Assembly: GCA_032718475.1 (NCBI GenBank) | Contig: JAUCBJ010001254.1 | Coordinates: 29,275 to 93,274, forward strand | Reading direction: 5' to 3' | DNA length: 64,000 nt | Source of the DNA: Nemertoderma westbladi | Taxonomy: Eukaryota > Animalia > Xenacoelomorpha | Shown: positions 9,182-51,257 of the stretch, piece after piece | Numbering within the stretch: position 1 is the first letter of the stretch | How the letters are laid out: each line of letters starts with the position of its first letter | Position numbers and translations under genes: made by a program | Notes under the pieces: model-generated | Database searches by the model: none | Told to the model about the DNA's origin: nothing | The model's input: the letters and a program-made list of their open reading frames with translations, nothing else

Positions 9182-10358
9182 TATAAAGGCTTTTGCGGAT
9201 CTAGCTAGTTATTTTCCCCGCAAAGTACTCTGTAGGTGTTTTAAAGGACATAAAAAGCCGTTTCCTTACTGTACCGGTGTTTTAGTGGACATAAAAAGCC
9301 ATTTCTTCTGTATGTGTACTTTAGCGGACATAACTAGCGATTTTATGTCGCAATAAGCCAAAATCCTCTTGATACAGTGTAGTTACGATGACGACATCTA
9401 TCAGCTGATATGTACAGGTACACGTGTAATTTTTCCCTTGTTCTTTGTTCGGTCGACCAATCAGAGCGATTTTCTTTGTGTTGGACAGTGCATATATAAA
9501 CTCACGCAATTCAGTCAGTATGTATCTTTCTAAGCCCAGAACACCGGCTTAGGATTCTTCTGTACTTCTGTGGAAGTTTCAGACTTTAGCCAAACATTAG
9601 AACGGCTTTGATCATAGAAACGTATAACTGTTATCCTGCCATACCTGGCATACCAGACTCACCTAACCTTTCACCGCATTATTTTACTGCTATTTGCTGT
9701 CGATTATTAATTGTTAGAAGTTGATTGATATGTTGTTATATTTGGAGAATATCGATGAATAATCATAAAACCCCAATCTTCTTGATATACTGAAGGTTAG
9801 AGAGACCGGTTACATATAGCAATTGCGACTTACATTAAAGTGGTTTTGGAGTGAATCTAATGCTATTTAATAGGCCCTACATGTGTCGGTTGCTATTCTC
9901 CTTATGTATGATCAAATTCAGTGAAGGTCGGCAGATCAGTGTGCAGCAGTGTGAGGTAGTGTGCATGAGTGTGACAGGTAACAAAGCATTTCCTAAAGAA
10001 TGCGCCTTATACGTAAATCATTAGCCATCCTGTTGTGCTTAGTGTAAGTCATAACTCTGTTTACATACTTAGAGCGCCACGTCCTAAAGGAACTGTTGAT
10101 ATTTCCCGAAAGTGAATAATATTTGTCAGAGATTATATATTAACGATCAATCGAATAATACAGTAGGCCTACACCGCAATAAGGTCAGAGCTTCCGAATC
10201 CAGTCTCCCGGGTATATCCAGCGGGTGAATGGTCGCGCATAGGCTGGCTTCGGCTAATGTAGTGTATCCAATACTCGTCATAGGCTAAAGTCGATTTATA
10301 ACCTAGAAGACACCTAAATTTGGAAGGTTAAACTGCTAAAGGTCTGAAAGCGCGAACA
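9182..10358 (+). repeat. 5' LTR of element A
   Basis: Direct repeat of 32103-33274. Begins TATAAAGG (TG mutated to TA) and ends GCGCGAACA. CCAAT box at ~9457, TATATAAA at ~9493, TCAGT initiator-like motif at ~9511. Confidence 0.95.
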
Positions 10359-10704
10359 ATAACAGTTATTAATTCTGATTGCAGTGTAGGCAATAAATAC
10401 AGTTTACTATTGTTCTGGTAAGAACAATAACAGTTATAGGATCTTTATTGCGACGTAGGCAATAAAGACTAAAGTACCAGTCGATCGGTAACTAGTAGGC
10501 CTAACTACCTAACCACCCGAACCGGTACTTACAGCAGTACAGGTACCAGTATTATTTCGATTGTGATATATTGTATATTGTAGGCTGTTAGGGGATTAGG
10601 GATTGATCACCCCTTATTCCTTTGTATGGTTTACTTATTTCTGTCAGTTTTATTTATTTGTAGGTTAATATTGAGCAGAAGACGTGTAAGCCTGCTCAGA
10701 TTGT

Positions 10705-11285
10705 ACAGATAATTTGTAGGCTGGACTGTTGTCTGACTGTTGTTAAGTCTGAAGGGATTGCAGTGTGTGTAGAGTGTATGTCCGATAAAGTACTAGTTAG
10801 GAAAGTGGTGGGCATCCAGTGCTGTAAGGTAAATCCCCGTGAAAGAATAAGTCGTACTACTCGGTTAGAACGCATACTAACTAACCATTTCGGAGTCTGC
10901 ATATACTGTAGTTTGTTTAGGCTTGATAGTAGTCTGCCAGCGTTTGGTCTGTATTTTGTTTGTGTAGTCTGTACGGGTAGCGTAATATTTCTTATTTAGA
11001 TAATTTGTAGGCTGGATTGTTGCCTGGCTGTTGTTAGGTCTGAAGAGATTGCGGTGTGTGTAGAGTGTATGTCCGATAAAGTACTAGTTAGGAACGTAGG
11101 GGCTTCCAGTGCTGTGAGGTAAATCCCCCCGAAAGAATAAGTCGTACTACTCGGTTAGAACGCATACTAACTAACCATTTCGGAGTCTGCATATACTGTA
11201 GTTTGTTTAGGCTTGATAGTAGTCTGCCAGCGTTTGGTCTGTATTTTGTTTGAGTAGTCTGTACGCGTAGCGTAATATTTATTAT
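10705..11285 (+). repeat. Two tandem copies of about 290 bp in the 5' leader of element A
   Basis: AGATAATTTGTAGGCTGGA...GTAGCGTAATATTT occurs twice. A homologous dimer lies in element B at about 25790-26360. Confidence 0.85.
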
Positions 11286-16709: not shown

Positions 16710-17919
16710 TGTTCGCGCTTTCAGACCTTTGGCAGTTTAACCCGCCAAATTAGGATGTCTTCTAGATAATAAATCACCTTTAGCCTATGACAAGTATTTA
16801 ATTCACTACACTAGTCGAAACCAATCTGTGCGCGATCATTCACCCATTGGATATACCCGGGAGATTGGGTTCGACGGCTTAATTTTATTGCTATGTAAGC
16901 CTAATGTATTATTCGACTGACAGTATTATATAATCTCTGACAATATTATTCACTTTCGGGAAATATTAACAGTTCCTTTAGGACGTGGCGCTCTATTTAT
17001 ACAAACAGAGTTATGACTTAAACTACTCACAACGATATGGCTTAGTTATAATTCACATATATGGCGCATTCTTTAGGAAATGCTTCGTTATCAGTCTCAC
17101 TCATACACAATGCTGCACAATACTGCACACTGATCTGCCGATCTTCACTGATTTTAGTCACATATAAAAGGAACACGGACCGAATCATGTAGGGTCTATC
17201 AAATAACATTAGATTCACTTCAAACCACTCAACATAGGTCGCAATCATTTATCTGTAACCTTTCTCTCTTACCTTCGGTATATCAAGAATATTGGGTTTT
17301 CGGGGTTATTTGTCGTTATTCCAAATATAATAATTCATCAACCATATTATGAAGAACTGACAGTAAATAGCAGTATAACAATATAAAGTATGCACAGTGT
17401 TACACAGTATGCAGTGTATGCAGTACTGCAGTATGCAGTATGCAGTGATCAGACATCAGACATCAGATAACGGATATATGTCCTTATAATTAAGCCTACT
17501 AGTGTAGGACTAAAAACTGAAAACACGGAGGTGCCAAAAGCCGGTTCTTAGGCTCTGGGCAAAAAATAACACTGAACTACTGAGTTTCTGTATACACCTC
17601 TAACACAGAGACAACAAACGCTCTGATTGGTCAACCTGAACAACGAGAGAACAAAGAAACAAAGAAACGTCGACGTGGCAATATCAGCTGCTAGCCGTCG
17701 TCATGGTAGCGACACTGTTTTCAAGAGTATCGAGCTTTTACGTCACGGAATTACGGATTATGTCCTCTAAAGTACAAATACCGAAGAAATAGCTTTTATG
17801 TCCGCTAAAACACCAGTACAGCAAGGACACGGCCTTTTTATGCCTGGTAAACCAACTACAGAGTATTTTACGGGAAAAATAAGGAAAAATAACCGGACAA
17901 TTCAGCAAAAGCTTTTACA
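16710..17919 (-). repeat. 3' LTR of element B
   Basis: Direct repeat of 26728-27937. Confidence 0.97.
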
Positions 17920-20929: not shown

Positions 20930-23900
20930 TTACGTTATGGAGTCCCTAGATGTTTGAAGGATTAGGGAGGTGGTCGTGGGAAGAGAATCTTGCCTTCCAC
21001 AGTTTCCGGAGAGTCCTCCATTCCCTTCCGATAAACACAAACGACCGACTGGGTGATTGAGTCGCTGCATCCTGAATACAATTCCAGGTTTCCTCTTCGT
21101 CCTGGAATAGTGACGATAGAAACATCGCTCAAAGTATATGACGGCGTCACAAAGCCGATTCCAGGAGCTATAGTGGTCCGTCGCTCTCTGCAGGAGAGGT
21201 GAGAGTCCCTGCGAGACGTCTGATGTTCCAGAGCTCCAATCGCTCTCTCTGATCTTCATGAAGGATCCACTCGCGGTGGGGAGGCCCAGATCCACGGCGT
21301 CGTCCCTGGCAACATGTAATACCGACAGATCTATCCCGGGTTCAAATAACTCCGATCCACCCGTCCGGGTTTCAGGTTCGACTTTCTCCGCTCCCTTGGC
21401 TGGTCTAATCTCAGTCGGAGTAAGATGGGGAGGCCATTCATTCTCCTTACTCAGGAAGTCGGGTTCACTTAACCGGTCTATAGTATCTGTCAGTTCTTGA
21501 GGAGTTGCTCCTCTGGAAGCGATGTCCGTTGGATTAAACTTCTTGGGGCAATATCTCCATTGATCTACATTGGAGCTAAGATTGTCATTATCTGAGGAGT
21601 GTGGTGTTCCCTCAGTTGGGTCGTCTCCCTCACTAGTATCATCTTCCCATTCACTCACCTGGCGGACGCGATCTTGAAGCAGTCTTTCTCTGAGCGTTCT
21701 TCGGGAAGGTCCAGTAAGGTACCAACCTACTCTAGTTCTTACCGCATAGGTCTGTAGTGGCTGCGGTTGAGCAGGTCGTTTCTCTAATGTCTCCAGCGCC
21801 TCATGCGCGTTTTGGCCGATGAGTATTTGCACTCCAGGATAATCAGTCTGGAATCGAGGTATGTTAAGATGTTGGATGCTCTCATCCTCGTCCCAATTAT
21901 AAAGGTCTGCTTGAGTAGTAGCGAAGTTCTTTATAGCCACCATTTTCACTGACCTTATACTGTATTCTCCTAGTTTATCCTGTGGGGTGGACAACTCACC
22001 TATATAATAGTCGGCAGCTACAGTAGAATTCCAAACCTGCATGATCCCTGACATGTTTAGCTTGGTTCGGAACTTGGGTTGTCCAGCAAAGATGACTTCG
22101 GCTAGTTCTTTATCGATGAATGTTCCTGTGCTACCGGAGTCCAGGAGGGCGTTCACTATATAGCTCTTCTGAGGTCCGTGGACCCGTAACTGGACTACAG
22201 GAAATTCTCGGATTCCTATATTGGAAGTTGGCGCTTTCCAAGATGGTTGTTGATCGGAAGTAGTTAAGGTAAGGTCGCTGTCTGTGTCTTTCTCGTACAC
22301 GAGTGTTCGATACACTGCGGTGGTGTTTATTAGGTAACAGGATTCGTTTTGGTCGGAGAACTCGTCCGTATAGAATCCTTCCATCTCAGATTGATCAGTG
22401 TCGTTCACATCACTGAATTGGACATGTAGTTCGGACTCACTTACCTGACTCGGGCTGTTTCGTTCGAATTCCGTGTGCAACAAGATATGATGTTTTGCGC
22501 CGCACTTTGCACACCTTGCGTCGGAGTTACAGGTTCGCCGTTGGTGTCCTCGTCTGAGGCAATTATAACACAACCGCTTATCCCACATGACTTCACGTCT
22601 ATCCTCGAGTGATTTCCTCAGGAATTTATCACACGCATTTAAACGGTGGGGCCCATCGCACAGCACACATTTCGGCTTGATGTTACTTACCTTAACCTGT
22701 GCTATGTGGTGCACACTTGTTCTTTCCTCGGGCTTTCTCACCTGAATTCTTTTAGGAGACGTAGGAGGGGTTTTTTGTACCGGTTCCCTTCTGTCATTGG
22801 GTCGAGACTTGAATTTACTTACCTGGTCTTTAGGCGTTTTGTTGTCGTAGTAAGATCTCTCAGTGTCTTTCCCGCTATCCTCTCCTTGAGAAGTCTGGCT
22901 TTCGCCGTCGTCTGTATAACACACTGGTGTTACCCTTCTCCTAGAAACGGGTTTCTCACTTACCTTGTTTTCCAGTGTCTTCTCTCTGGACTGCCTTAGG
23001 AGCTGTAATTTCACTTCTCTATCTAAGAATGACATGAGATCAGCCATGGTAGGGTCTCGTCGTTGTTGTTCCATCATATATAACACTTTCTTGTCCCAGC
23101 GTGTACCTACTCCACCCTTGGGCAAAGTAGATGCTAGGGCTCCTACAACCATAGAATTCTGGTATTCATGAGACTTACCTAACCAATCTAGTTGTCTACA
23201 GATCTCCTGAATCTCGTCGGAAAACTCTATAATCCCGCTGCTAAGAAACTTTCGGGGCGCCATTAATTTCGCATATAAATACCTAGCTATGTTAGTCCTA
23301 TTACCATACCTGATGTTTAGGGTATCCCAAACTTGTCTTAATCCATCTGGATGTCCAATAAATTTTAATGCCATTAACTTGGGAGATCCTTCCAAGCACT
23401 CGATGAGGTATCTAAGTTTCTCTCCATTAGATAGCACAGAGTTCTGTATGTTATCTTTGTAATATTCATTAAAAGGTAACCATTTCATCTCATCTCCATT
23501 GAACTTGACGATCTCTCCCACCTTTACCGCTTGCCGGGCTTCGGTTCTAGCCATTTGACGCGTAAAACTTTCTTGAGCCATCGTATTATTGAATATAGAA
23601 TTATCGGTATATAAGTTTCTCGGATTAGGATCAGGTCTATATGGAATATTATTATCAACAGGTTTATAATCACCCTGAATAGGGTTTACTATAGGAGTTT
23701 CTACTTCACTAGCAGTATAGATGCGTGTAGGCTCTACACCTTGCGCATGAGATACTTCAGACCTAACGGGTTGACACATTGTTACAGGGGGTGGTGGTAT
23801 ACCCTTTTGTAAATTGACTAATTTATCGCGTTCTAACGCGATACTTTGCTGCACCTTTTGCAACTCTAACCTACTTTCCCTGACTGTTCCCTTGAGCTGC

Positions 23901-24358
23901 TGGACAGTCTCTTCCATTTCCCGGACCTGCTGAGAGGAGCACAAACAGTGTTCCCTCAGCTGCTCGAGCAGGAGACCCATCTCCCGTCGTCCCTCAGCTA
24001 CCCACTCAACCGCCGAAGCGGGAGTCGCCAACGTTGTAGCGGGCGAGCGAGAGACAACGGGAGATAAATTCTTAATATCTCGCTCGGCGTCCAGGATGGG
24101 TTCGGACTCGGGAACAGTCCTACTGGGCACAGGTAGTTTAGTACTGTACAAAGGGAATTTATAGGCAGGTTCTGGGAGTACAGGTGTCTCTATCTTTCTT
24201 TCCGCTTCTACTGTTGCCATTGCCTCTGCCGCCTTTCTTTCCGCTTCTGCTGTTGCCATTGCCTCTGCCATCTTCCTTTCAAGACCCTGTCCAAGTCTAA
24301 GACTCATTCTAACACCTTCCAAAAGACTATCTGACAGTGCCCGTTTTGTGTCAGACAT
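20930..24358 (-). CDS. gag: Gag-protease polyprotein of element B (1142 aa) with a short RNase H-distal remnant; no RT or integrase
   Basis: BEL Gag core, three Cys-His boxes, protease LLDSGSTGTFI and RTRVGWYLTGP. It then jumps to QWRYCPKKFNPTDIASRG...FL...EWP and YSSWNRL, the BEL motifs that follow RNase H. No YxDD or DDE motif. Confidence 0.93.
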   Translation of the reverse strand: MSDTKRALSDSLLEGVRMSLRLGQGLERKMAEAMATAEAERKAAEAMATVEAERKIETPVLPEPAYKFPLYSTKLPVPSRTVPESEPILDAERDIKNLSPVVSRSPATTLATPASAVEWVAEGRREMGLLLEQLREHCLCSSQQVREMEETVQQLKGTVRESRLELQKVQQSIALERDKLVNLQKGIPPPPVTMCQPVRSEVSHAQGVEPTRIYTASEVETPIVNPIQGDYKPVDNNIPYRPDPNPRNLYTDNSIFNNTMAQESFTRQMARTEARQAVKVGEIVKFNGDEMKWLPFNEYYKDNIQNSVLSNGEKLRYLIECLEGSPKLMALKFIGHPDGLRQVWDTLNIRYGNRTNIARYLYAKLMAPRKFLSSGIIEFSDEIQEICRQLDWLGKSHEYQNSMVVGALASTLPKGGVGTRWDKKVLYMMEQQRRDPTMADLMSFLDREVKLQLLRQSREKTLENKVSEKPVSRRRVTPVCYTDDGESQTSQGEDSGKDTERSYYDNKTPKDQVSKFKSRPNDRREPVQKTPPTSPKRIQVRKPEERTSVHHIAQVKVSNIKPKCVLCDGPHRLNACDKFLRKSLEDRREVMWDKRLCYNCLRRGHQRRTCNSDARCAKCGAKHHILLHTEFERNSPSQVSESELHVQFSDVNDTDQSEMEGFYTDEFSDQNESCYLINTTAVYRTLVYEKDTDSDLTLTTSDQQPSWKAPTSNIGIREFPVVQLRVHGPQKSYIVNALLDSGSTGTFIDKELAEVIFAGQPKFRTKLNMSGIMQVWNSTVAADYYIGELSTPQDKLGEYSIRSVKMVAIKNFATTQADLYNWDEDESIQHLNIPRFQTDYPGVQILIGQNAHEALETLEKRPAQPQPLQTYAVRTRVGWYLTGPSRRTLRERLLQDRVRQVSEWEDDTSEGDDPTEGTPHSSDNDNLSSNVDQWRYCPKKFNPTDIASRGATPQELTDTIDRLSEPDFLSKENEWPPHLTPTEIRPAKGAEKVEPETRTGGSELFEPGIDLSVLHVARDDAVDLGLPTASGSFMKIRESDWSSGTSDVSQGLSPLLQRATDHYSSWNRLCDAVIYFERCFYRHYSRTKRKPGIVFRMQRLNHPVGRLCLSEGNGGLSGNCGRQDSLPTTTSLILQTSRDSIT

Positions 24359-26727
24359 GCTTATGTGTACAGTTGAATGTCTACTGCTGTATTACAGTCT
24401 GAGCAAGTCTAGTAACTCAGTATTAACTGCTAGCCTAGTAATTAATTACCGGTACTGCTACTCAGTGTAGCGTGATATATATAATATATTAGAATACCGG
24501 TATGCTTATAGTATATATAACTATTATTACAGACTAGGTTTATCACAGAATACCGGTATAATTTTAGCACAAATATATATAAATATATAATAGGCCTATC
24601 GGAATACCGGTATACAGCTTACAGTTTGTAGTATATATAATTCTGGACTAGAATTAATTACAAGTACCGGTATAATTTCAGCCTAAATTTATAGAAATAA
24701 AGATAATAGGCCTATCGTAAATACCGGTATGCAGTTTACACTTATAGTGTATATATATAAGTATAATTACAAACTAGAATTAATTACAAGTACCGGTATA
24801 ATTTCAGCCGAAATTTATAGAAATAAAGATAATAGGCCTATCGTAAATACCGGTATATCAATTATTTTAAATAATTGAATTTCTGAATTTTAGGGTTACT
24901 TGGTTACTTTACTTACTTTATTACCGTTATTTGAGCAGTAATCCAACTGATATTGAGACCTAATGGTTGTATGGTAGGCCTACGATTTATAAATCGTTAG
25001 ATTTGATTTATAATATATATATACCCGTTTTAATGGGTGTAGTCAATGTTTGAAATAAATGTTATTATTTCTGGGGTAATTACTACACAAAGCGGTACGC
25101 TTTCAGTGAAGTGTTACGTATAGGACACTAAAACAAATGATTCTAATTTACCTAAGTTACTTAATACTACAAATTACGTACAATTCGGGTGAGATTACAA
25201 TCTCTAAATAAACACAAAAATTTACAAAAACACAAAATACGAATTTTTAGGGTAATTTTACAAGAAGTCTACAAACCAGTCTAACTAAGGGTTAGAATCT
25301 GGTTATTACAACGGACAGGGTACTACGGTATTTGAAATAATAAGTAGTAGTAAGTACACTGCGTTGTCCAGATAGGAAAATACCACCGCCTGACGACCTA
25401 TAGCCGTATCGCTATAGGTTCTACGTTATGTATCACGGAGTGTTCCTACCTAGAAGTTAATAGAGCTAATCGAACGTGCCTATCAACCACTTTACAACAC
25501 AAATATAATGTCTACACTAATTACTTCGGAAAGTACTGTACACTAAACCCTAAATTAGGTACGAGTACTTGTACAACATATAATCAGTAGTTAAATATAC
25601 TTGAACAGTTAAAAGAACCACGGCATCTGCTGGAGTGACCGATGCACAAAATCACCAGTCTTTACCTACGCCAAGCAGCCCGTGTAGTACCGGGGTTAAT
25701 TTAACTATAGCGGTATGTATAACAAACACAATTACTGTAGGAACAAACTTGGGGAATGAATGTTGCGAATAATCGCATAAACTCTGAATAATAAATATTA
25801 CGCTACGCGTACAAACTACTCAAACAAAATGCAGACCGAACACTGACAGACTACTATCAAGCCTAAACAAACTACGGTATATGCAGACTCCGAAATGATT
25901 AGGGAGTATGCGCTCTAACCCAGTAGTGCGACTTATTCTTTAGTTGGGGGTTTACCTTACAGCGTTCGCTGCCCCTACTTCCTAACCGTACTTAATCAGA
26001 CAAATGATCTACACACACTGCAGTCCGTTCAGACCTAATAACAGCCGGACAACTATCCAGCCTACAAATTATCTAAATAAAATTATACGCTACCCGTACA
26101 GACTTACACAAACAAAGTACAGACTAAACGATGGCAGACTACTCTCAAGCCTAAATAAACTACAGGACATGCAGACTCCGAAATGATTAGGGAGTATGCG
26201 TTCTAACCCAGTAGTACGACTTATTCTTTAGTTGGGGGTTTACCTTACAGCATTCGCTGCCCCTACTTCCTAACCGTACTTAATCGGACAGGTGATCTAC
26301 ACACACTGCAATCCGTTCAGACTTAACAGCAATCAGACAACAGCTCAGCCTACAAATCGTCTGTACAATCTGATCAGGTTTACACGCCTTCTGTTCAATA
26401 CTGACCTACAAATAAATAAAACTGACAGAAATAGGCCTAAGTAAAATCCCAATAAAAACCAGGCGTCCCCGATTAATTATTAAGACCTACCGGCATATAT
26501 AATCAAATCGAATAATACTGCTGTACTTGTACGGGAAGTACCGGTTAGGACAGTTAGGCCTACCGACCTACTGAAGTACCGGTTCTGGCAGTTGGACCTA
26601 CGGGCCTACGGCAGTACCGGTTCTGGCAGTTGGGCCTACTGACCTACAGATGGACCGTTCAGGTTTACCGGTTGACCGGTACTTTCAACTTTATTGCTTA
26701 CTGCAATAAAGAAGCTATATCCGTTAT

Positions 26728-27937
26728 TGTTCGCGCTTTCAGACCTTTGGCAGTTTAACCCGCCAAATTAGGATGTCTTCTAGATAATAAATCACCTTTA
26801 GCCTATGACAAGTATTTAATTCACTACACTAGTCGAAACCAATCTGTGCGCGATCATTCACCCGTTGGATATACCCGGGAGATTGGGTTCGACGGCTTAA
26901 TTTTATTGCTATGTAAGCCTAATGTATTATTCGACTGACAGTATTATATAATCTCTGACAATATTATTCACTTTCGGGAAATATTAACAGTTCCTTTAGG
27001 ACGTGGCGCTCTATTTATACAAACAGAGTTATGACTTAAACTACTCACAACGATATGGCTTAGTTATAATTCACATATATGGCGCATTCTTTAGGAAATG
27101 CTTCGTTATCAGTCTCACTCATACACAATGCTGCACAATACTGCACACTGATCTGCCGATCTTCACTGATTTTAGTCACATATAAAAGGAACACGGACCG
27201 AATCATGTAGGGTCTATCAAATAACATTAGATTCACTTCAAACCACTCAACATAGGTCGCAATCATTTATCTGTAACCTTTCTCTCTTACCTTCGGTATA
27301 TCAAGAATATTGGGTTTTCGGGGTTATTTGTCGTTATTCCAAATATAATAATTCATCAACCATATTATGAAGAACTGACAGTAAATAGCAGTATAACAAT
27401 ATAAAGTATGCACAGTGTTACACAGTATGCAGTGTATGCAGTACTGCAGTATGCAGTATGCAGTGATCAGACATCAGACATCAGATAACGGATATATGTC
27501 CTTATAATTAAGCCTACTAGTGTAGGACTAAAAACTGAAAACACGGAGGTGCCAAAAGCCGGTTCTTAGGCTCTGGGCAAAAAATAACACTGAACTACTG
27601 AGTTTCTGTATACACCTCTAACACAGAGACAACAAACGCTCTGATTGGTCAACCTGAACAACGAGAGAACAAATAAACAAAGAAACGTCGACGTGGCAAT
27701 ATCAGCTGCTAGCCGTCGTCATGGTAGCGACACTGTTTTCAAGAGTATCGAGCTTTTACGTCACGGAATTACGGATTATGTCCTCTAAAGTACAAATACC
27801 GAAGAAATAGCTTTTATGTCCGCTAAAACACCAGTACAGCAAGGACACGGCCTTTTTATGCCTGGTAAACCAACTACAGAGTATTTTACGGGAAAAATAA
27901 GGAAAAATAACCGGACAATTCAGCAAAAGCTTTTACA
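26728..27937 (-). repeat. 5' LTR of element B
   Basis: TGTAAAAGC...GCGCGAACA; a diverged homologue of the A LTR. Confidence 0.97.
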
Positions 27938-33274: not shown

Positions 33275-33554
33275 GGTTGGCTGGAGACCTCGGTCCTCGA
33301 CTCACGTTCCTCTTCACCTCGTGCTCGTCCATTTTCATCCTCTCCAACCAAACCGCCATTCTTCAGCGAATCCGGTGTGGCGGGCCGGTAACACCTTATC
33401 GCCGCCTCCCGAATCGTTGCGTCTCTGTCACTGGGAGTGCGCTGCAGACTTCTTCCCTTCTCCGAACCCTGGGACGTTGTTGGTTAGCTCATTGTTGTTG
33501 GCATGATCTAAACTTGTTGTGGGTGTTAGTCACAATCTCGAAGTCGGTTTAAAC

Positions 33555-34182
33555 TGTGACGGGATCCGAGTTGGCGAGGGATCCCGCCCGGTGTGTGTTT
33601 CGTGGTTAATACGCGTCGCCGCATCCGCTAATGTGGTTCTCACTAAAGGCTTGGTGCTGAAAGGCCGAAGGCCAGTATAATAAAGTTCTGAGTTTTAGGG
33701 TAAACCCAATTATTGTTGTTAATAATCTCAGAAGTATGAGTACCGATAATATAGCACAATCAGTATTGCACAATAATAGCAGTTACAACGACGGTTTAAA
33801 CCGTTTAGCTTCCACCCTGAATAATAGCCAACTGAACCATAATTAACACTGGGTAACATATTTAGTTATATGGACATTACATGGGAGGTTACACACATTG
33901 CTTACTGTAATACCTACCAGTAAATGCGCGCTAATTGATGGTGTACCGCCCCGCTATTGGTTGGTTTACCTCCCCTAGCCACTCCCTGTCTTTCCTGGCC
34001 CTATGTCGGCTTCCCCTTGAGATGTGCTGGCATCTCTCTCTCTCTAGCTGGCAATGTATATTGCCTCGTTCCCTCTAGTATGCAATATTGCGTTGGGCAA
34101 TATTGCATATCTAATCGTGATTCGTAAATCACGACTTTCCCCATTCTCCGCTGGGTGGTGCAGCGGATTGGATCCGCTAACA
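33555..34182 (-). repeat. 5' LTR of element D
   Basis: Termini match the C LTR (plus strand TGTGACGGGATCC...GCTAACA). 33555-33858 aligns with 8487-8780. Confidence 0.85.
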
Positions 34183-34768: not shown

Positions 34769-34770
34769 AC

Positions 34771-38115: not shown

Positions 38116-38734
38116 TGACATTGTTAGCTACCATCTTACTGAGAGAAGGTTAAATATTTGTTCTAGAACAAAAAACCTCATGATAAAAGCCATTTTCATA
38201 TAAAAATTTTGTTTTTAAAATTTTAACGCACTATCGTAGTGGTAATTGTCGCCATCTTACGTGTTCTCCTTATTGGTAAAGGTTCGCTTATTTCTATGGC
38301 TTTACGCGTTAGGCAGTAGTACGGAAAATTGAGATGATCCATCGGGACTTGACTCACAATGCTACTATTAGTTACTTGCTGTAAACCAATCTCTGGAACT
38401 GTCTCATACTACAAAAGTCCTGAAACATAATGTCTTAATTTTGCTTCACAACATTCACAACCCACCCCTAATGTTTTAGAATTTTATTTAAAATAAATAG
38501 CTAGCTATCAATTTAAATGTATGAAGTATATGAAGTATATTAGTTACTGTATAATAAAAAAAATTTGCGAATACATGAACGGCACAACTATTTAATTTAT
38601 TTATTCGGAATTGGCACTAATATACTGTAGTACCGGTTCTAAAATTTTGAATTTTTTTAATGAATAAAACACACTAAAACACATTTATTTCTATAATAAT
38701 TTCGATTCTAGAATATTCTATAATGTTTTGAGTA

Positions 38735-39667
38735 CACCATGTCCTGGAATATAGTGTCGTTATTCAGGTATCTGCCCCCCCCCCCCCCCCCCCCCAAAAA
38801 AAAAGAATTTCTACAAATCGTGATGAGATTGCATGAAATTTGAAACAGAGATAGTTTCACTTCCCTCCTCCTTGTTGGGTGAGCCAGAATTTTTATTTTG
38901 GCTTTCATTCTTTAGCTACAAACGTTTAAAAAAGATGTCTGATTGTGTGATATTTCACCAGTTACACTCCTGTTATTCTTCAACCTTATAGTGATTTCTT
39001 GGTACTGATGGAAAGCTGGCCATGTAAGGATTCCAAATATGTAACATAATCTGAATTTGGTTGGGAAATAGCTCAGATGTGAGCTTTCAAAAGTTGCATG
39101 GTTTTGCATCTGCATGAGTTTATTTTATTCTATTAAATAAAAATACCATATTCTAGAACATTTTGTTTATTTATGAATAGCTACGTAATAGTATAATTAA
39201 AGAGGTATTGCATTGTTGCCCAGCTACGTATGGAATAAACAAAATGTTCTAGAATATGGTACATTAATTAAATAGAATAAATGGCCTGCTGCAGGGGAAG
39301 CAAATACATACATCATTCATCATCATTCAGCAACATATCTCAGGTGTTTCCCAACCAAATTCAAAATTTTTTACATATTTGGAATCCTTGCATGGGCAGC
39401 TTTCTATTGGTACCATCAAATCACTATAAGGTTGAAGAATGATTGCACTGTGACCTGTGAAATATCGCCGGAGACACCTTTTTCAAATACTTGTAGCTAA
39501 AGATAGAAAGCAAAAATAAAAATTCTGGCTCACCCACCACGGAGTAGGAGGGAGGTGAAACTATCTCTGTTTCAAATTTCATGCAATCTCATTACGATTT
39601 GTAGAAAAATTGGGGGGGGGGGGGGGGCAGGTACCTGTATAACGACACTATATTCCAGGACATGGTG
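38735..39667. mobile_element. Foldback MITE with TA TSD
   Basis: TIRs CACCATGTCCTGGAATATAGTGTCGTTAT, with inverted arms of about 350 bp plus an inner inverted repeat. The terminus is related to 4883-5293. Confidence 0.9.
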
Positions 39668-41128
39668 TATATTTTGACACAAAAACATTATATTATTAAA
39701 GTTGTTACTACCTCCAAGTGCAGTTTTATATACTGTAATCTATTGTGAGAATGAGTGGTGACATTAAATCTAAACGTAACGTACTTAAACACACTTATTT
39801 GTCCTAATTAATCAGACAGAGCGTTGCATAACAAAAAAAGAATTATCTAGAACAATTATATTTTTAAATTGACAATCAAAATATTCTATAACAATAACTG
39901 CCCATAATAAAATATCAACTAAACTTGTTAAAAGAAATGGCAAGATGGCGCCAAAATTTCGGAGCTAAAACTACCAAAAATAAGTATAAAAACGTACGCC
40001 TTTGTTATAGAACAGAACATATTTTTTTGGGAACAGTTCCTCCCGTTCCAACAATTTCGTTGTTTTTTTTCCAACAAATTTTCAAGCTTTTCTGTCAGTT
40101 TTTTTTATAAATGTTCTAGAACGTATATTAGGTGTTCTAGAACTTTGAAAAAAGTTCTAGAAAATTTTGATTATTAAAATTTTTTCTTTAAAAGAGAAAA
40201 TTATTTAAAAAATTGTTAAATTTTATTATTTTTATGCAATTTTGCCTGTTTTTTTTTCTATTGAAAGGAGTTCTAGAACATTTATTAAATGTTCTAGACC
40301 ATATACCAAATTAAAAATGAAATAAAAGAAATATACGATGAACGTTCCAGTTACGACAAATGTAACGAATACGCCGACAAATTCGCGTCAAAGGTGATCG
40401 GATATCTCTGGCGACGCGTAATTAATGAAAGAATGCCTTCTTGGAAATTATACACTCAATTAAAGAACAATACAAATTTGTAAAAAATAACAATACGTTA
40501 TTTTTAAAAATAAAAAAACTACTGTACGTATATAACTCAGAAGCCAAATAGAAAATAATAGCTATAGATATAAATTACTAGCTATAATGTATTATATTTT
40601 TTATCATATTTTTTATGATCTATTAAACTGCATGTTTAAATTGTCCAAATTTCCATATTATTTCCATAAATTTCCAATTCTGAAAACCGCTATTTAATAG
40701 CTCTTTGAGTTTTCAAGTTATAACAATTTCCATTTAGGGAGACCTACAGTACTACTCCTACAATTTTAGAGCAATTAGTCTAAAAATATCTGTGGTTGTC
40801 TACATAGCCATCCTACAAAAAAGTTATATCAGACAACTTTTTGAATTTATAACAAACCTAAAAAATTAGCATAAATATACAGCGCCACCTAGCGGTGCAG
40901 ATTTATTTTCACAAAATTTCGCCAGATACTTTAGTTATGTTTCCCAATCTTTGATCTATCAAATAAAAAAACTTTCATGTGATTAGGTTCAAAACTGTAA
41001 AAGCCTTAGGGTTTTAAGCGCAACCAAGTTTTTTTTATTGTTAACTAGTATTAACTAATATTAAATAGCGAAAAATAAAATTTTTCTAACCTGTCATTCC
41101 AAGTTATAGCCAAAACCAAACAAATTTG

Positions 41129-41856: not shown

Positions 41857-42522
41857 CAAATTTGAAACGCTGAGAGTTGACCGAAAATGGTGTAGACCGA
41901 CCACCCCCCCCCCCCCCCCCCCCTGTAGCAATACAAGTACAAAAAATAAAAGTACGGTTCCGTGTTTACGTTAAATAATACCTTTATTTTAACTTTTCAC
42001 TTCTCCACTTTTCCAGCTATATACCAAAAATCCCCAAAATAGCTAGAACAGGGTCTGGCTCATTATTTGAAAGTGGTGGAAGAGAAAAGTTTTTCAAACG
42101 CTTGTAGAAAAAATAAAGGGAAGTTCTAAATTTCCTACAAGAAAGTCAAGTGTAAATTGTAGAAAAATTAGTAGGTTGGGCTTGGGGGGGTGTGGTGGAG
42201 ACATGTGACAGAATTAAGACATTACATTCCAGATGTATTGTCATTATTATTACATAATACACGGAATCATTGGTCTACACAGTACAAGACATCAGAAACC
42301 TATGTTAGTTACCTACTTGACGCACATGTACAGTAGTTTTAAAGAAATTAAGTTATTTTTCGTGTTACGCTAAATTAATTTAGATGTTATATTCATTAAT
42401 ATTTAAACGTTCGGAATGTGTAAATTAATAAAAAATGTTCTGGAACAATTTATTTCCCAGTAAACTTAATATACCGTATACAACTATCTATTTATTTATT
42501 ATTATTATCTATTATTTATATA

Positions 42523-42750
42523 CACCATGACCCGTAATATAGTAGCATTTTCTGATGACACGGACCCAGATTTTTCTACAAATCTTTTATCATATTGCTT
42601 GAAATTTTTGAAACACAACTACTGTAGTTCCACTCACCGTCGATGACCCCATGAAGCCGGAATTTTCGATTTTGCCTTTAAATTCTTTTTATAAGCGTTT
42701 TAAAAAAGTGACTTTTGCGAAATCGTACCCTCTGTATCGTAGCCATTCTT
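42523..42750. mobile_element. Truncated copy of the 4883-5293 MITE
   Basis: CACCATGACCCGTAATATAGT...GAAGCCGGAATTTTCGATTT...CCCTCTGTATC aligns with 4883-5120. Confidence 0.85.
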
Positions 42751-42799
42751 GTAGTCATTGTAGTCCTCCATCGTAGCCATTGATAATAATGGCATAAGC

Positions 42800-43275: not shown

Positions 43276-43812
43276 TGTGACGGGATCCAGGAGGGATCCC
43301 GATTTATCCGATGTGGTATTTAGTCCACGCGTCCCCGCCGTGTATAAGAGTGAAATAAAGATAACTGAGTTCTGAAGTTCGGTGTATAATAATAGGTTAT
43401 AGGATATAGATATATTGTGAATGTGTACAAGGCGGGATACGGTAACTAAAGTCCCGTGATCCCCTAACTAAACTAATTGGCTGTACCCTACGCTAGCACT
43501 GCTGCACTGAGGTAACTGAATCACTGATTAATAGGTTATTGGTTATATTGCACGGTGGCCTTACTGCTACTCAATCGATGCCATTCCCCCCTCTGATTGG
43601 TTAATACCCTTGTTGGCGCCCCGTGGAGTATTCCCGTTCACTCCACCTGTTCTCCTTGGGTTAGGGGTTTGGCCCCTGACCTTCTGTTGTGTGCCTCCTT
43701 CCCACTCTTATTGGGATGGCACGAGTTGGTTAATTGCCCAATCTCGTGGCTCCCAATATTGCTTATCGGCTAATAACTTTATGGGGTGTTGGCGGGATTG
43801 AATAAGCTAACA
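43276..43812 (-). repeat. 3' LTR of element C
   Basis: Direct repeat of 50721-51257 with TG...CA ends. Confidence 0.97.
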
Positions 43813-44389: not shown

Positions 44390-44870
44390 CTCTATCTACG
44401 TGGCGCTAACGGTGCCCACAACCACAACCGGTACTACGTACCCTCTTACTAACTCTATCTCCATCTACGTGGCGCTAACGGTGCCCACAACCACAACCGG
44501 TACTACGTACCCTCTTACTAACTCTACCTCCATCTACGTGGCGCTAACGGTGCCCACAACCACAACCGGTACTACGTACCCTCTTACTAACTCTACCTCC
44601 ATCTACGTGGCGCTAACGGTGCCCACAACCACTCTACTACTGCTTCTACTCTGCTACTATCTTTCTAACTCTATCCTCCAACTAACTTTATCTCTATCTA
44701 CGTGGCGCTAACGGTGCCCACAACCACAACCGGTACTACGTACCCTCTTACTAACTCTATCTCCATCTACGTGGCGCTAACGGTGCCCACAACCACAACC
44801 GGTACTACGTACCCTCTTACTAACTCTACCTCCATCTACGTGGCGCTAACGGTGCCCACAACCCCACTAC
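44390..44870. repeat. 69-bp tandem repeat in the 3' UTR of element C, two blocks, about 7 units
   Basis: Unit CTACGTGGCGCTAACGGTGCCCACAACCACAACCGGTACTACGTACCCTCTTACTAACTCTACCTCCAT. Confidence 0.95.
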
Positions 44871-45066
44871 TACTACTCGTGGCATGACAATATGCCACAC
44901 TCCCTTGCCCCGCCGCCTTCTAACCCTACTTCTTACTATCCTCTACTAACTATTATTTAATTATTTTATTATTTATTATTTTTAATTAAATAATTATTTT
45001 TGTGGGGAGGGCGTCTCGCCCTCATTCCCACCCCCCTCAGTCCAAAATATTGGACGACTAAACCTC

Positions 45067-48000
45067 CTAACTAGGGCGATTCTTCCAACAGGCACTCTCC
45101 CACTGCTGCTCTTGTAGGTCCTGTAGGATTCGCCGCACTCTCTTTGCCAATTCCATCTCACCAGGAATTGGTTCTCCCTCTTCTGCCACCCTGAAATCGG
45201 GTCTCTCCGCCGCCTTCTTAACTAGCTCATCTCCTGGCATCAAAATGCCACCTCCCTCCTTGTTGTCTCCCGCCGGCAGAATGAATAGAAAGTGAAAGAA
45301 CAGGCAGAACAGAAGGTAGAATAATAGTCCTATCCCTTTCCATCCTGCCTTCCTTCTCGAGTTCCCCCTTGTCGGTATGCCTCCCAACCGGACCTGCGTC
45401 TCTTCCGGACACTCCTCTGGACACTCCTCCAGACACTCCTTCCTACACTCCTCCGGGCACTCCCCCGGAGTGTTGTCCTCCGGACACCTCGCCGTCCGCT
45501 CCGCTCCATCTCCATACCGATGCTTGTTGGGAAACCTACTCTCCTCTGCCCACTTTCTTACTGTCACCTCCCTATCTGGCTCTACTATCTCCTGTTTCTC
45601 CTCTTTGTCCACTGCGCCTGCGGTGCCTGGTAACATGCACCCTGATGTCTCTGTCACACTGCATGGGATCTTAGTTTTAACTGGGCCGCTAAGCATCCAT
45701 CCGAACGGCGTGAGGATTGCCGTCGGGTCCCGCTGCCTGTCTTCGCCGAAGACCGTCTTCATCCTCTCATGGGCCGTCGGGCAGTCCATTCCTACTATAA
45801 TGGAGACCTTCCTAACGTCCACCTTTGGTATTGAGAAATCGATACCGTCCAGGAATCTATACTGCTCGACCTCAGTGTTGGTTGGTCGCCTGGCGTTGAT
45901 GTTTATCGATTCGATGACGTGGATGGGGTCGATTGTCGCCCCATAGCCGCATCCCGGTGCAATCGCTGCTATCCTGCACCGCCCCGTCCTCGTCTCCAGG
46001 ACCTCATCTTTACTCGAGACGGTAGTCACCGCCATTCTATTCGGCCTTGTCTTTAGCCCTATCTCTTCGGCCACCCAGTTCTCCACCAGCGTGAAGGCTG
46101 CTCCGGTGTCGACCAGCATTAATGTCGTTACTGATCGACCGCCCTCTCCTGATATCTTTACTGGTACTACCCCGAGTAGTACTTTTCTCTTCTTCTCCTC
46201 TTCTGGCGTACTTGTAGCCATTGTTTGGCCTCCAGTCTCGGACTCTCTAACTGCTGTTTCTCCACACTCTCCGGACCTGTGTTCTTCTACCACGCATCGA
46301 TGACATAGTCCGTTTGCGTTTGTGTAGGCTACACGATCTTGTTTGGGCAACGCTTGCCAGTGCTTACAACTCCTGGTCTTATGTGTTCCGTCTCGATGTA
46401 ATTGACATTCGAATCCTGGATTATAGCGTTCCCTGTATAGTCCCTCACGTATCGCGCCTAGGTTTATATGTACCGATTTAGTGTTTTGGTTGTCTGTATT
46501 CGGCCTACTGGGTACATTGGGATTATGTTTAGTTATGGTGTTATTTTCTTTCTGTCCCCGCCATGGTGTGGCCCTGCTACCAGCTAACTGTGGACTAGCA
46601 GTCCCCTGTGTGGCCGCATGTGGTAGTGATTGTCCTACTCTCGGGAGTGGATCTGCAGGATCGTGTTCGGGTTTATGGCTTGTCCCCAAACTATCCTCAC
46701 TATAGACTGGGTCTGTTATTAATTCGGCTTCATAGTTGAGGAAGCTCGACATCTCTTCTAAGCCCGGTTCCGCACCCTTCTTCTCCCGTGTGGAGAAGGC
46801 GATCTTCCTCCATTTGTTGCGCAGCCAGCTCGGTAGTGCCTGCGCTATCGTGGTGATGTTATTGGACGCGTTGAGCTCGTATGGCGCGTCTAGCGTCTTC
46901 AGCACGATCAGCGCCTTCTCGACTTTGTTAGCAAACGTCTTAATGCTAACAGGATTATCCTGTAGGCCACCCGATGTTATGCCTCTCAGCGTTTGCCTGA
47001 TGATCTTGGCCGGGTGCCCGTATTCCCTATCCAGTGCCCGCCATGCTGTCGTGAAGCCGCCCTCTATTCCCTGATATTGCCTCACGATGTCGTATGCTGG
47101 GCCTCCCGTGTACACTTGTAGATACTTTAGGCACTCCGCCTGCGTCAAGTTTTTTGTTAGTATTTCGTTACTATACATTCGCCGAAACTGTAAGTATTCT
47201 TCCGGCCTGCTCCCATCGAATTTGAACGGTTCCACGGGTGGTAATTCGATCCTCGTTTTCAACGCATCGATCAACGTGGCCATCCCCATTGCCTGCGCTT
47301 CTAATGGATTCGACGGGTGCTGCATAGTTTCCCCTGTCTGGTGCGGTTCGTCCGTCCTATTTCTTGATCTTCTCTGACTCGGATATGTCATCGGGGGTAG
47401 CGGCCCCCTCCATATGTCTGTATCACACGACCTGTTTTCATCTAGGGGTCTCGTTGTTCTTGTTCCTGTCGGGGTATATTGTTGATATTGTGATGGGGGA
47501 ATGTCACCCTGTCCCCCCCCCACCGGTATGTCTGGTACTGGGGTTGATGTTAATATGTTGGGGCCCATACACCTATCCGCAATAATTCCCCCTTCCCCTG
47601 GGTATATGTTATGTCCCTGCATGCTGTAGTCATACTGCTGTGCTGGTACCGGTATAGGCCTATCAGCTTCTGGCCTACTCGCCGGTATGTATTCCGCGAC
47701 TTCCGGGTTTAATCCCGTTGTCCGCGCTATCCTATCGCCTACATTGCCTCTCTCAGTATGGCCTACGGTATGTGCAGTAAGACCTACAGTATGCCCTACA
47801 GTCTGCATGTGTTGCTCGGGATCGAAGTTTATTTTTCTCGAATAATCCTCCCCGCGGTTACCGTATTCTCGATCGGTAGGTATATTCCGTCGGAAAGTTT
47901 CTCTTCGACCCCCCTCTCCACTGTTTTCATCTTCGTACCGGTACATCGCGTACCCCTCTCTCGGCGTGTAATGCGTCTCACCGGATCGCATCCCTCCGGG

Positions 48001-50604
48001 GCGACGGCAATCTCCCGGAGTCCGACCCCACTGACTCTCCGTTCTCATCTCGACTACCGACGGCTCGCTGTCCGTCCTCGCTCTTCTATCTTTTGCGGCG
48101 ATACTTCTACTACTGTCTTCCTCTCTTCTCCTATCAGTGGAATATTCCCGCTCACGAGATCTCTCGTCGAACTCCCGGTTAAACCCCACTGTTCTTCTTT
48201 CCTCCTCTGATCGGGCTCGACGCTCCGTCTGCCCTCCCGCGACGTCAACCTGTCTTTCTCTGCTCGATCGCACGTCGCTGGGGATACTCGCAATCCCCCT
48301 ATTATTCTCCGTCGCCGGGTGTTGCGGTTTACCTAATTCGGCCCTCGCATTGTCCGCTGACGGCTGTGGGACACTCTCTGCCCCCCCCCCTCTCGCCGCT
48401 AACTCTCTGTTGTGGGGCCCTTGTAGCCCCCCCCCCCACCCGCTACATTCTACTTCGCTACCTCTCGCCCCGCTACTATATATCTCTCTAGTCGACACAT
48501 CAACCCTACCACAGTCGGGTCTATTCACCCCCGCCTCTCCCTCTGCTATTGCGTGGCCTTCCAGGCCCTCTACTCCCTGCCTACCAACTACGCGGCCTAC
48601 CAGGCCCTCTGCTCCCTGTCTACTAACTACGTGGCCTACCAGGCCCTCTGCTCCCTGTCTACTAACTACGTGGCCTACCAGGCCCTCTGCTCCCTGGTTA
48701 CGTAGGCCCGACGTGTTTACATTAATAGCACCCATATTGGAAACGGAATTAATTTGCTCATTTGAAACAAAATCATTTGTATTATTCTGCGCGACTACGT
48801 TATCTGAATTATTTTGTAAATTCGGGCTAAGATCATTATTTGAATTATTCGAATTATTCTGTGTAATTGCGTTATTTAAGTTATTTTGTAGGTCCGAATT
48901 CGAGTTATTATTTTGATTATTTGAATTATTTTGCGTAACTACATCAATATTAGGATCATTAACACTGGGATTGTTCTGATTTAAATTTAAATTACTACCA
49001 CTAGGCAAAGTATTTCCTGTAATAAAGGTTTGATTAGCGTTATCCCATACGGTACTATTAATATCAACAACGTACTGTACCATTATTATTACCCCCCCGC
49101 CCGTACGGTCGCACCAGTTTTGGGTCTGTCGTGCGGTCCCTGTCAGTGGAGTATTAATAAATATATCTACGGCCCTGGTTTCAGACGGCGTCGCTCGCAC
49201 GTATTCCAACTCGTGCTCCCCTCTAATTATATTTCCCGCAAACTCACTCTGCCGTTTCTCTAATTCCTTGCGCTCTTTTTCACTCTCTGCCATTTTCCCC
49301 TCACGCTCCTGGGTGTCCTTGATGGCCGAGTCTGCGGCACTCTTAATGCTCTCCCTTCGTCTCGCCTCACGCTCTTTGCGTTCCTTTTCCTTTCTCGTCT
49401 CATATTCCTTGCGTTCCTTTTCCCTTTTTGCCTCACGTTCCTTGCGTTCCTCGTCCTCCCTTGCCTCACGCTCTCTGCGTTCCCTTTCCTCTCTCGCTTC
49501 ATGCTCCCTACACTCCCTTTCCTCCATCTCATCATACTCCCTTAGGCTTTTCAAAGCCCTTTCGGCCCTTTCTCCGGTTTCTCTAAGCAATACCGTTTCC
49601 CTCTCTAACCGCACTCTTCCCTCCTCTAGCCGTTCCTTCATTTCTCTCTGACCTTGCTCTGCCATGCTGAGACGGTATGCAGCTCCTATTTTCCTCACCG
49701 CTCTTTCTTTCGCGGAGGATGTAACAGACTTATCGGTTACGACGGACTTCCCCCGCCTTCCCGACCTACTAACTTTCTCCCACTTCCCGGAGCTTTCTCC
49801 GACCGACGAGGCCGAATCCTCGGTGTTAACCTCGGATTCGCCCCCTTCGAGTCCCCTCCAACCCACCGGTTTTACTCCCCGGGCATCGATTAAGTATGGC
49901 CCTATGTACACTGACGCTATGCTAGGTCCCATACTCCCACACTCCCATAGTTCAAACAGTTCGCCTGCAATTCCCTTTGCTCTCTCCCCGGCTAGTTCTC
50001 TCTGCCCAAAACGTATCAGGTAATTTAAGTGTCTATCCGACTCACCTAGTCGCTTTCTCAGTCTCACCTCGTCTACCTTCACCCCTTCCTTCTTGGCGTC
50101 GTTTATCAGCTTCCGGGTCGCGTTGTAGGCCCGTCGAAGTCGCTCAGAAACCCCGACGTCCTCGTCGCCGACCTCTCCTCCGTCCCTCCGGGTTCGACGT
50201 CGTACCGGCGGCTCCACCGTCGCCGTTCCGGTGGGCCGTCCGTCGCCCTCGGCCTGTAGCTGGCCGGCGACATCGGTACCAATCTCTCCTCCGTCTCTTC
50301 GCGTCCGGCGTCGCACCGTCGGCCCCACCGGTTCGGTGGGCCGCTCGTCGCCCTCGGCCGGTAGCTGGCCGGCGACATCGGCGCGCCGTCCTCCGTCCCG
50401 TGTCGACTCATCTCCTTCTCCCTCCGTCTCGCTCTCTTTCTCTCTTGGCTCGACTTCGGGTTCCAGGCCCTCCTCGTCCTGTGCTTCCGGTTCGCCCGTT
50501 ATCGATGGCTCCGGCGTCGTGGGCCTGTATCGTTTGGTCGCGGCCTCGCGGATCGTTAGGTCTTCGTCCGGGGTCCGCGGTGGTGTCTCGCCCGACTCAC
50601 TCAT
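45067..50604 (-). CDS. gag: Gag-protease polyprotein of element C (1845 aa); no RT, RNase H or integrase core
   Basis: LPPVEPFKFDG..EEY..F (DUF1759-like), CQLHRDGTHKTRSC, CHRCVVEEHRSGEC, protease MLVDTGA, and TPFGWMLSGP. Very long low-complexity N-terminus. Confidence 0.93.
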   Translation of the reverse strand: MSESGETPPRTPDEDLTIREAATKRYRPTTPEPSITGEPEAQDEEGLEPEVEPREKESETEGEGDESTRDGGRRADVAGQLPAEGDERPTEPVGPTVRRRTRRDGGEIGTDVAGQLQAEGDGRPTGTATVEPPVRRRTRRDGGEVGDEDVGVSERLRRAYNATRKLINDAKKEGVKVDEVRLRKRLGESDRHLNYLIRFGQRELAGERAKGIAGELFELWECGSMGPSIASVYIGPYLIDARGVKPVGWRGLEGGESEVNTEDSASSVGESSGKWEKVSRSGRRGKSVVTDKSVTSSAKERAVRKIGAAYRLSMAEQGQREMKERLEEGRVRLERETVLLRETGERAERALKSLREYDEMEERECREHEAREERERREREAREDEERKEREAKREKERKEYETRKEKERKEREARRRESIKSAADSAIKDTQEREGKMAESEKERKELEKRQSEFAGNIIRGEHELEYVRATPSETRAVDIFINTPLTGTARQTQNWCDRTGGGVIIMVQYVVDINSTVWDNANQTFITGNTLPSGSNLNLNQNNPSVNDPNIDVVTQNNSNNQNNNSNSDLQNNLNNAITQNNSNNSNNDLSPNLQNNSDNVVAQNNTNDFVSNEQINSVSNMGAINVNTSGLRNQGAEGLVGHVVSRQGAEGLVGHVVSRQGAEGLVGRVVGRQGVEGLEGHAIAEGEAGVNRPDCGRVDVSTREIYSSGARGSEVECSGWGGGLQGPHNRELAARGGGAESVPQPSADNARAELGKPQHPATENNRGIASIPSDVRSSRERQVDVAGGQTERRARSEEERRTVGFNREFDERSREREYSTDRRREEDSSRSIAAKDRRARTDSEPSVVEMRTESQWGRTPGDCRRPGGMRSGETHYTPREGYAMYRYEDENSGEGGRRETFRRNIPTDREYGNRGEDYSRKINFDPEQHMQTVGHTVGLTAHTVGHTERGNVGDRIARTTGLNPEVAEYIPASRPEADRPIPVPAQQYDYSMQGHNIYPGEGGIIADRCMGPNILTSTPVPDIPVGGGQGDIPPSQYQQYTPTGTRTTRPLDENRSCDTDIWRGPLPPMTYPSQRRSRNRTDEPHQTGETMQHPSNPLEAQAMGMATLIDALKTRIELPPVEPFKFDGSRPEEYLQFRRMYSNEILTKNLTQAECLKYLQVYTGGPAYDIVRQYQGIEGGFTTAWRALDREYGHPAKIIRQTLRGITSGGLQDNPVSIKTFANKVEKALIVLKTLDAPYELNASNNITTIAQALPSWLRNKWRKIAFSTREKKGAEPGLEEMSSFLNYEAELITDPVYSEDSLGTSHKPEHDPADPLPRVGQSLPHAATQGTASPQLAGSRATPWRGQKENNTITKHNPNVPSRPNTDNQNTKSVHINLGAIREGLYRERYNPGFECQLHRDGTHKTRSCKHWQALPKQDRVAYTNANGLCHRCVVEEHRSGECGETAVRESETGGQTMATSTPEEEKKRKVLLGVVPVKISGEGGRSVTTLMLVDTGAAFTLVENWVAEEIGLKTRPNRMAVTTVSSKDEVLETRTGRCRIAAIAPGCGYGATIDPIHVIESININARRPTNTEVEQYRFLDGIDFSIPKVDVRKVSIIVGMDCPTAHERMKTVFGEDRQRDPTAILTPFGWMLSGPVKTKIPCSVTETSGCMLPGTAGAVDKEEKQEIVEPDREVTVRKWAEESRFPNKHRYGDGAERTARCPEDNTPGECPEECRKECLEECPEECPEETQVRLGGIPTRGNSRRKAGWKGIGLLFYLLFCLFFHFLFILPAGDNKEGGGILMPGDELVKKAAERPDFRVAEEGEPIPGEMELAKRVRRILQDLQEQQWESACWKNRPS

Positions 50605-50720
50605 CTCGTCTGGTGGCTGATGGTTCGGCTAGCTAGGGTGGAGTTCTTTGTGTTTAACTGGGGCGGCAGCTCGTCTTTAGTTACTGAGTTTAGCTGGGGA
50701 AGCAACACCGTTTTAGTTAC

Positions 50721-51257
50721 TGTGACGGGATCCAGGAGGGATCCCGATTTATCCGATGTGGTATTTAGTCCACGCGTCCCCGCCGTGTATAAGAGTGAAA
50801 TAAAGATAACTGAGTTCTGAAGTTCGGTGTATAATAATAGGTTATAGGATATAGATATATTGTGAATGTGTACAAGGCGGGATACGGTAACTAAAGTCCC
50901 GTGATCCCCTAACTAAACTAATTGGCTGTACCCTACGCTAGCACTGCTGCACTGAGATAACTGAATCACTGATTAATAGGTTATTGGTTATATTGCACGG
51001 TGGCCTTACTGCTACTCAATCGATGCCATTCCCCCCTCTGATTGGTTAATACCCTTGTTGGCGCCCCGTGGAGTATTCCCGTTCACTCCACCTGTTCTCC
51101 TTGGGTTAGGGGTTTGGCCCCTGACCTTCTATTGTGTGCCTCCTTCCCACTCTTATTGGGATGGCACGAGTTGGTTAATTGCCCAATCTCGTGGCTCCCA
51201 ATATTGCTTATCGGCTAATAACTTTATGGGGTGTTGGCGGGATTGAATAAGCTAACA
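50721..51257 (-). repeat. 5' LTR of element C
   Basis: Direct repeat of 43276-43812. Confidence 0.97.

Follow-up and report, generated by a model that had tools for sequence, protein, structure and literature searches.

How does a retrotransposon of the BEL/Pao type start reverse transcription when no tRNA can be recognised as its primer? The question is raised by a stretch of 64,000 nt of Nemertoderma westbladi DNA (hereafter, the window), in which a first-pass annotation had noted four elements (A to D) without a TGG-initiated tRNA primer-binding site (PBS) and had suggested that they prime from their own RNA, because the bases next to each 5' LTR are complementary to a segment of that same LTR. 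For the Belpaoviridae, the ICTV describes an 18-nt PBS for tRNA-Arg or tRNA-Gly (PMC8742986). In Tf1, as described in excerpts of PMC7175516 (also PMC4600332 and PMC5341516), the primer is formed by the RNA's first 11 bases, cut by RNase H, and the available part of PMC6317226 presents self-priming as described for Tf1/sushi and as predicted for Tcn1 and TAR. The features of the four elements on which our analysis is based are the following (window coordinates):

9182-10358, plus strand: 5' LTR of A, which begins TA, not TG; 98.7% identical to the 3' LTR of A
32103-33274, plus strand: 3' LTR of A
9624-9634, plus strand: predicted self-primer of A, 11 nt
10359-10369, plus strand: primer-binding position of A, complement of 9624-9634
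10427-10437, plus strand: second PBS copy of A, in a duplicated 68-nt leader unit
26728-27937, minus strand: 5' LTR of B, 99.8% identical to the 3' LTR of B
16710-17919, minus strand: 3' LTR of B
27485-27496, minus strand: predicted self-primer of B, 12 nt
26716-26727, minus strand: primer-binding position of B
20930-24391, minus strand: ORF of B, 1153 aa, with DUF1759 Gag, a protease-like region and an RNase H tail remnant
50721-51257, minus strand: 5' LTR of C, 99.6% identical to the 3' LTR of C
43276-43812, minus strand: 3' LTR of C
50887-50895, minus strand: predicted self-primer of C, 9 nt
50712-50720, minus strand: primer-binding position of C
50676-50684, minus strand: second PBS copy of C, in a duplicated 36-nt leader unit
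45067-50628, minus strand: ORF of C, 1853 aa, with DUF1759 Gag and an aspartic protease
33555-34182, minus strand: 5' LTR of D, its start inferred from likeness to the start of C
33794-33803, minus strand: predicted self-primer of D, 10 nt, inside a 12-nt palindrome
33545-33554, minus strand: primer-binding position of D
8487-8782, minus strand: partial D-type LTR, 84% identical to the 5' LTR of D, in which no base of the primer segment (about 8717-8726) has changed

The LTR ends of A, B and C were fixed by two LTR copies and by 5-bp target-site duplications (GGTTG, TAAGC and CATCT, respectively); that of D was fixed solely by the partial LTR of 84% identity, and a search for a target-site duplication of D found none. 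Three of the elements form a nest (8487-34182), with B lying inside A and A inside the gag remnant of D, while C is separate. The elements carry the BEL-type Gag (DUF1759) and protease by which BEL/Pao (Belpaoviridae) are recognised, and homologues (18-43% identity) bear PF05380 and PF18701, which are pol domains of BEL/Pao. A, B and C also have LTRs within the range of 0.2-1.2 kb and a polypurine tract, the second LTR of D being partial. A to D resemble Belpaoviridae in their Gag, protease, polypurine tract and TG..CA LTRs of 0.5-1.2 kb, but differ from them in lacking the 18-nt tRNA PBS as well as reverse transcriptase and integrase, neither of which was found in any of the four, A and B keeping just the RNase H tail remnant. 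They are non-autonomous BEL/Pao-type derivatives and not intact members of the family. Judging from the identity of their LTR pairs (98.7-99.8%), three of the four have been recently mobile with these sites. A and B are related elements of a family that is highly abundant and variable in sequencing runs. In the libraries searched there was no close protein relative (identity was mostly 21-38%), no fetched relative locus matched the window at the DNA level, and a 24-nt LTR-end pattern gave 0 matches among metagenome contigs. Elsewhere in the window there are two minisatellite arrays, one of about 208 copies of an 18-bp unit (51449-55128, beginning 190 bases from the 5' LTR of C) and one of about 190 copies of a 16-bp unit (57317-60489); a 940-bp imperfect inverted repeat (38733-39669, 77%), related to 4866-5240 and 42504-42750 and resembling a foldback or MITE-type element; and two open frames on the minus strand, of 494 aa (3-1484) and 395 aa (6132-7319), with no Pfam match. 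ARAGORN found no tRNA in the window.

The complementarity itself was confirmed in full. All eight segments lie where they had been placed and are perfect reverse complements over 11 nt in A, 12 in B, 9 in C and 10 in D, and no TGG occurs in the first 18 bases past the LTR in any of the four. When the LTRs were dinucleotide-shuffled and the match was required to be contiguous and without spacer, equally good pairing was obtained in 2 (A), 0 (B), 3 (C) and 2 (D) of 3000 trials; a looser test allowing a spacer of 0-4 nt and splicing gave p values of 0.003, 0.002, 0.013 and 0.005, respectively, and mock PBSs taken from the flanks of the 3' LTRs paired over just 5-7 nt. As had also been claimed, the letters differ within the homologous pairs A/B and C/D while pairing is kept: after alignment at the primer 3' end, which is AT in A/B and AC in C/D, A departs from B at two positions and C from D at six of nine, and every one of these changes is compensated. 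A to D count here as two homologous lineages and not as four independent cases. The segments of A and D are palindromic, as the first-pass annotation had cautioned. The leader duplications of A (10359-10437) and C (50720-50676) begin at the PBS, which is identical in both copies, the bases that follow being about 65-70% alike. An extended pairing of the primer surroundings with the U5 end or the leader, plausible by eye in A, was rejected (16 of 16 tests non-significant, p 0.056-0.97). On the basis of an exact complement that stands at the priming position with priming polarity in all four elements, we favour priming by the elements' own RNA.

Protein-guided scans provided 97 loci for comparison, 18 from prokaryote assemblies and 79 from metagenomes (from the best 80 of 497 confirmed stretches); viral contigs yielded no BEL locus. 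The loci in bacterial and archaeal assemblies (L001-L018), including L011, which is part of a Wolbachia chromosome record of 1.4 Mb, are probably host DNA binned in. We hand-picked ten loci in which the LTR end was fixed by two copies with different flanks, excluding L012, which belongs to the family already represented by L028, and also four repeats without clean LTR ends. The proposed check in other BEL families came out positive in nine of these ten, with pairing over 10-14 nt at 0-4 nt past the LTR. This pairing was contiguous in three loci, and in six it appeared solely once a predicted GT-AG intron (77-451 nt) was taken out. Each of the nine reached p <= 0.003 against 1000 shuffled PBSs given equal freedom, with a list of splice donor patterns that had been drawn up after some of the ten loci were inspected. 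The tenth, L011, is an insect element with a TGG site. In A to D, a primer assembled by splicing was also tried and rejected, since the contiguous match came out best in all four.

A cross matrix of PBSs and LTRs showed that the own LTR was the best match for each PBS, off-diagonal matches not exceeding 9 nt (10 for two sister families). The sister families L001 and L002 have the post-intron exon in common, but the first exon ends in TAA in L001 and in CAC in L002, and the PBSs differ to match. Moreover, the 5' LTR of L077 lacks exactly the 117-nt intron present in its 3' LTR, so that its 14-nt primer is contiguous, which is a mark of spliced RNA having been copied. The LTR copies of L058 (1-326 and 6694-7103) are 88% alike; in one of them a splice acceptor falls inside the primer position, and in the other the primer is contiguous. 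These comparisons bear on the suspicion that the complementarity arose by chance or merely reflects local duplication and palindromes. In favour of this, the PBS of D doubles as a direct repeat of the palindrome in that element, and C pairs over just 9 nt, with the highest p value of the loose test. We regard such an origin as scarcely credible, given the shuffles, the flank controls and the cross matrix, and because DNA duplication cannot yield matches across predicted splice junctions.

We also scanned blindly, with the LTR end taken as unknown, the 62 of the 97 loci that remained after dropping 35 in which the gag start was uncovered or had less than 150 nt upstream. With a cut-off of at least 10 nt and no more than 2 of 30 shuffles as good, which is loose enough for a few chance passes, 29 of 62 loci passed, 21 of them above all 30 shuffles. 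One pass (L027) was a wrong match, and the remaining 28 loci reduced to 21 distinct primers, 14 of which are 11 nt long; their 3' ends are AC (15), AT (4) and CT (2). In most pairing relatives a predicted GT-AG splice junction falls within the match. Among the 33 failures, one was the TGG element; five (L012, L025, L026, L042 and L092) contained matches of 11-15 nt on after-the-fact inspection, which had been missed because the acceptor filter was strict, the spacer measured 6 nt or the start codon was wrong; two (L082 and L096) were borderline, and many others were truncated contigs. The first-pass annotation had further stated that the segment is always followed by C and that its complement abuts the LTR end without spacer. 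Both points hold for A to D but not in general, since the next base is C in 10, G in 8, A in 2 and T in 1 of the 21 distinct primers, and the spacer of relatives varies from 0 to 4 nt. In reverse transcriptase trees all scored loci fell in a single clade (the aquatic clade), separate from the insect clade to which the TGG element L011 belongs, and ready-made primers were scattered among spliced ones. As for the window elements, C and P0003 formed a group (SH-aLRT 97) at the base of the aquatic clade in a Gag-protease tree, which placed B, a long branch, weakly beside an insect clade (83); of the 46 matches of B that bear a reverse transcriptase, 31 belong to the aquatic and 15 to the insect clade.

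Where the primer lies in the transcript was approached through promoter and poly(A) motifs. CCAAT, TATA-like and initiator-like motifs occur 32-113 nt upstream of the segment in A to D, the initiator-like ones at 113 nt in A, about 100 in B, 60-70 in C and 32 in D, and by these motifs alone the primer is predicted to lie 30-110 nt inside the RNA. A TATA-like motif was present upstream in only 8 of 28 loci, at 52-243 nt. In the spliced relatives, the exon before the intron supplies just 3-6 primer bases, which speaks for an RNA start well upstream and makes a start at the primer unlikely in these loci. Nevertheless, an RNA beginning exactly at the segment, whose untailed 5' end would then be the primer, deserves to be weighed, since that is the arrangement of Tf1 (first 11 bases; PMC7175516, in the excerpt available) and since 11 nt is the primer length in 14 of 21 cases. 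Folding also agrees with such a start: from the primer onwards, the duplex had a pair probability of 0.97 in B, 0.79 in C and 0.92 in D, and it was lost in B (0.00) and D (0.03) when 100 nt were added upstream. The duplex of A was not favoured (mean pair probability <= 0.01), and that of C is 9 bp with -7.3 kcal/mol. Folding, run without a control, further predicted that B, C and D form hairpins close to the end of the LTR; Tf1 is said to require a U5-IR stem-loop next to its PBS. Considering the motifs upstream of the segment in A to D and the short first exon of the spliced relatives, we think a start at the segment possible, yet clearly the less probable arrangement, and keep to an internal primer.

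The first-pass annotation had left two options for an internal segment, namely that it is cut out of the transcript or that it represents the transcript's 3' end in the 3' LTR. The former fared better. AATAAA or ATTAAA was found 1-49 nt downstream of the primer in eight of nine relatives, and a poly(A) signal after the primer fits a geometry of the Tf1 type, in which R is downstream of the cut, but does not fit priming from a 3' end; we infer the same geometry for A to D by carrying it over from the relatives. In the window elements themselves, a poly(A) signal follows the primer at 200 nt in A and 578 nt in B, C and D having no canonical signal, and neither AATAAA nor ATTAAA occurs upstream of the primer in any of the four. 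If the transcript, or a short LTR transcript, had the segment as its 3' end, the segment could prime without an RNase H cut, and in favour of this the segment is present in both LTRs and the poly(A) signal abuts it in L001 and L002. However, the signal in eight of nine relatives stands after the primer and not 10-30 nt before it, A to D likewise have none upstream, and a poly(A) tail would block a 3' end from priming, so that we give this option very little weight and retain internal cutting. The distance from primer to LTR end is 724-757 nt in A and B compared with 44-175 nt in relatives. B contains a candidate intron downstream of the primer (about 27291-26781), with a matching part in A; its donor is good in B and weaker in A, its acceptor is weak, and its removal would shorten the loop of about 750 nt to about 250 nt. 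This candidate intron includes the AATAAA of B, and run X5, taken as RNA by guess only, had no splice joint at it.

Not all observations agree with the proposal. Counting against it are the mixed folding, the long distance between primer and LTR end in A and B, the short duplex of C, the weak placement of B, the 33 failures of the blind scan and the scarcity of TATA-like motifs upstream of the primer. In runs X1 and X3 there were common changes at positions 1 and 5 of the B PBS (53-69% of contig depth, which is not copy number), and the matching primer change that had been predicted beforehand for these variants was not listed, the only substitution in 111 bases being outside the primer. This comparison is weakened by a table that omits differences near contig ends and by a homology that breaks a few bases past the primer; the depth at the B primer fell from 583,000 to 147,000 across it and to 16,000 just beyond, so variant copies may simply not align. 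In X3 and X4, a one-letter primer variant did turn up in loose ends of individual contigs. Unmatched PBS variants may be common in the B family, perhaps as a large subfamily. They would suit a different role for the pairing, as a structural element in packaging, dimerisation or a splice-state switch, with priming left to a tRNA fragment or another host RNA. The palindromic segments of A and D and the second PBS copies in the leaders of A and C would also be in line with this, and half-tRNA priming exists in copia lineages according to the part of PMC6317226 available. Against it, at least 21 different PBSs match their own LTR and not others, so that one host RNA cannot serve all, and the match is at 0-4 nt from the end of the LTR, the place at which priming has to start. 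We consider a purely structural role improbable, although less so than priming from a transcript's 3' end.

We believe that Tf1-like self-priming, as proposed from the outset and reinforced by the relatives, is the best reading of these data, and that A to D and their relatives probably prime reverse transcription from their own RNA. Transcripts would begin inside the LTR, at a point probably upstream of the segment, which would then fold onto the post-LTR bases as a duplex of 9-12 bp. The RNase H of a partner would cut at the 3' end of the segment, after AC or AT, freeing a 3' OH, by a cut of the kind demonstrated in Tf1, and minus-strand DNA would be copied back to the cut and jump to the 3' LTR, in which the poly(A) site would be downstream of the segment. 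All enzymes would come from a full-length partner not seen here. Plus-strand synthesis would copy the attached primer, so that the PBS would be rewritten from the primer in each cycle, which would explain the constant match between the two; in Tf1, the PBS is reportedly rewritten from the retained primer. In many full-length relatives the primer, split by an intron, would exist only after splicing, whereas A to D, like scattered relatives, carry it ready-made, possibly via intron loss. As to the broader scheme, in which a large BEL/Pao clade does without tRNA priming and uses an internal primer, mostly assembled by the spliceosome from two LTR exons, with reverse transcription made dependent on splicing and A to D derived from copies that had lost the intron, we find the arguments evenly balanced.

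The likeness to the Ty3/gypsy chromoviruses (Tf1/Tf2/Tj1, Tf1/sushi and Tcn1), as far as the excerpts cited above describe them, lies in the absence of a tRNA site and in a PBS of about 11 nt complementary to the element's own LTR-derived RNA. However, the proteins are BEL-type and not those of a gypsy chromovirus, so that the elements would work like Tf1 without being members of its group; moreover, the primer is predicted inside the transcript and not at its first bases, and many relatives would need splicing. In the TAR lineage of plant Ty1/copia elements (Houba, Osr-1), self-priming was predicted from an LTR complement of at least 10 bp located 0-5 nt past the LTR (PMC6317226, part available), that is, from evidence of the same kind as that for A to D. 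TAR belongs to another superfamily and another kingdom, and the same part of that paper describes no splice-built primer. The terms primer, PBS and tRNA are absent from a BEL/Pao survey (PMC3118150), as are PBS and tRNA from the Sinbad paper (PMC554778), and the portions of PMC6934838, PMC3601003 and PMC5443660 hold nothing on BEL priming. Within the part of the open literature covered, we found no report of BEL/Pao self-priming or of a splice-built primer. The new parts of the proposal are the internal primer and the splice-built primer.

If these conclusions are true, priming without tRNA would extend to the third superfamily of LTR retrotransposons and to a broad clade within it, contrary to the ICTV description, and annotation tools that demand a tRNA PBS would misjudge such elements. 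The elements would, we presume, also be free from control by tRNA fragments. In the relatives, a primer built by splicing would couple the initiation of reverse transcription to the RNA processing of the host.
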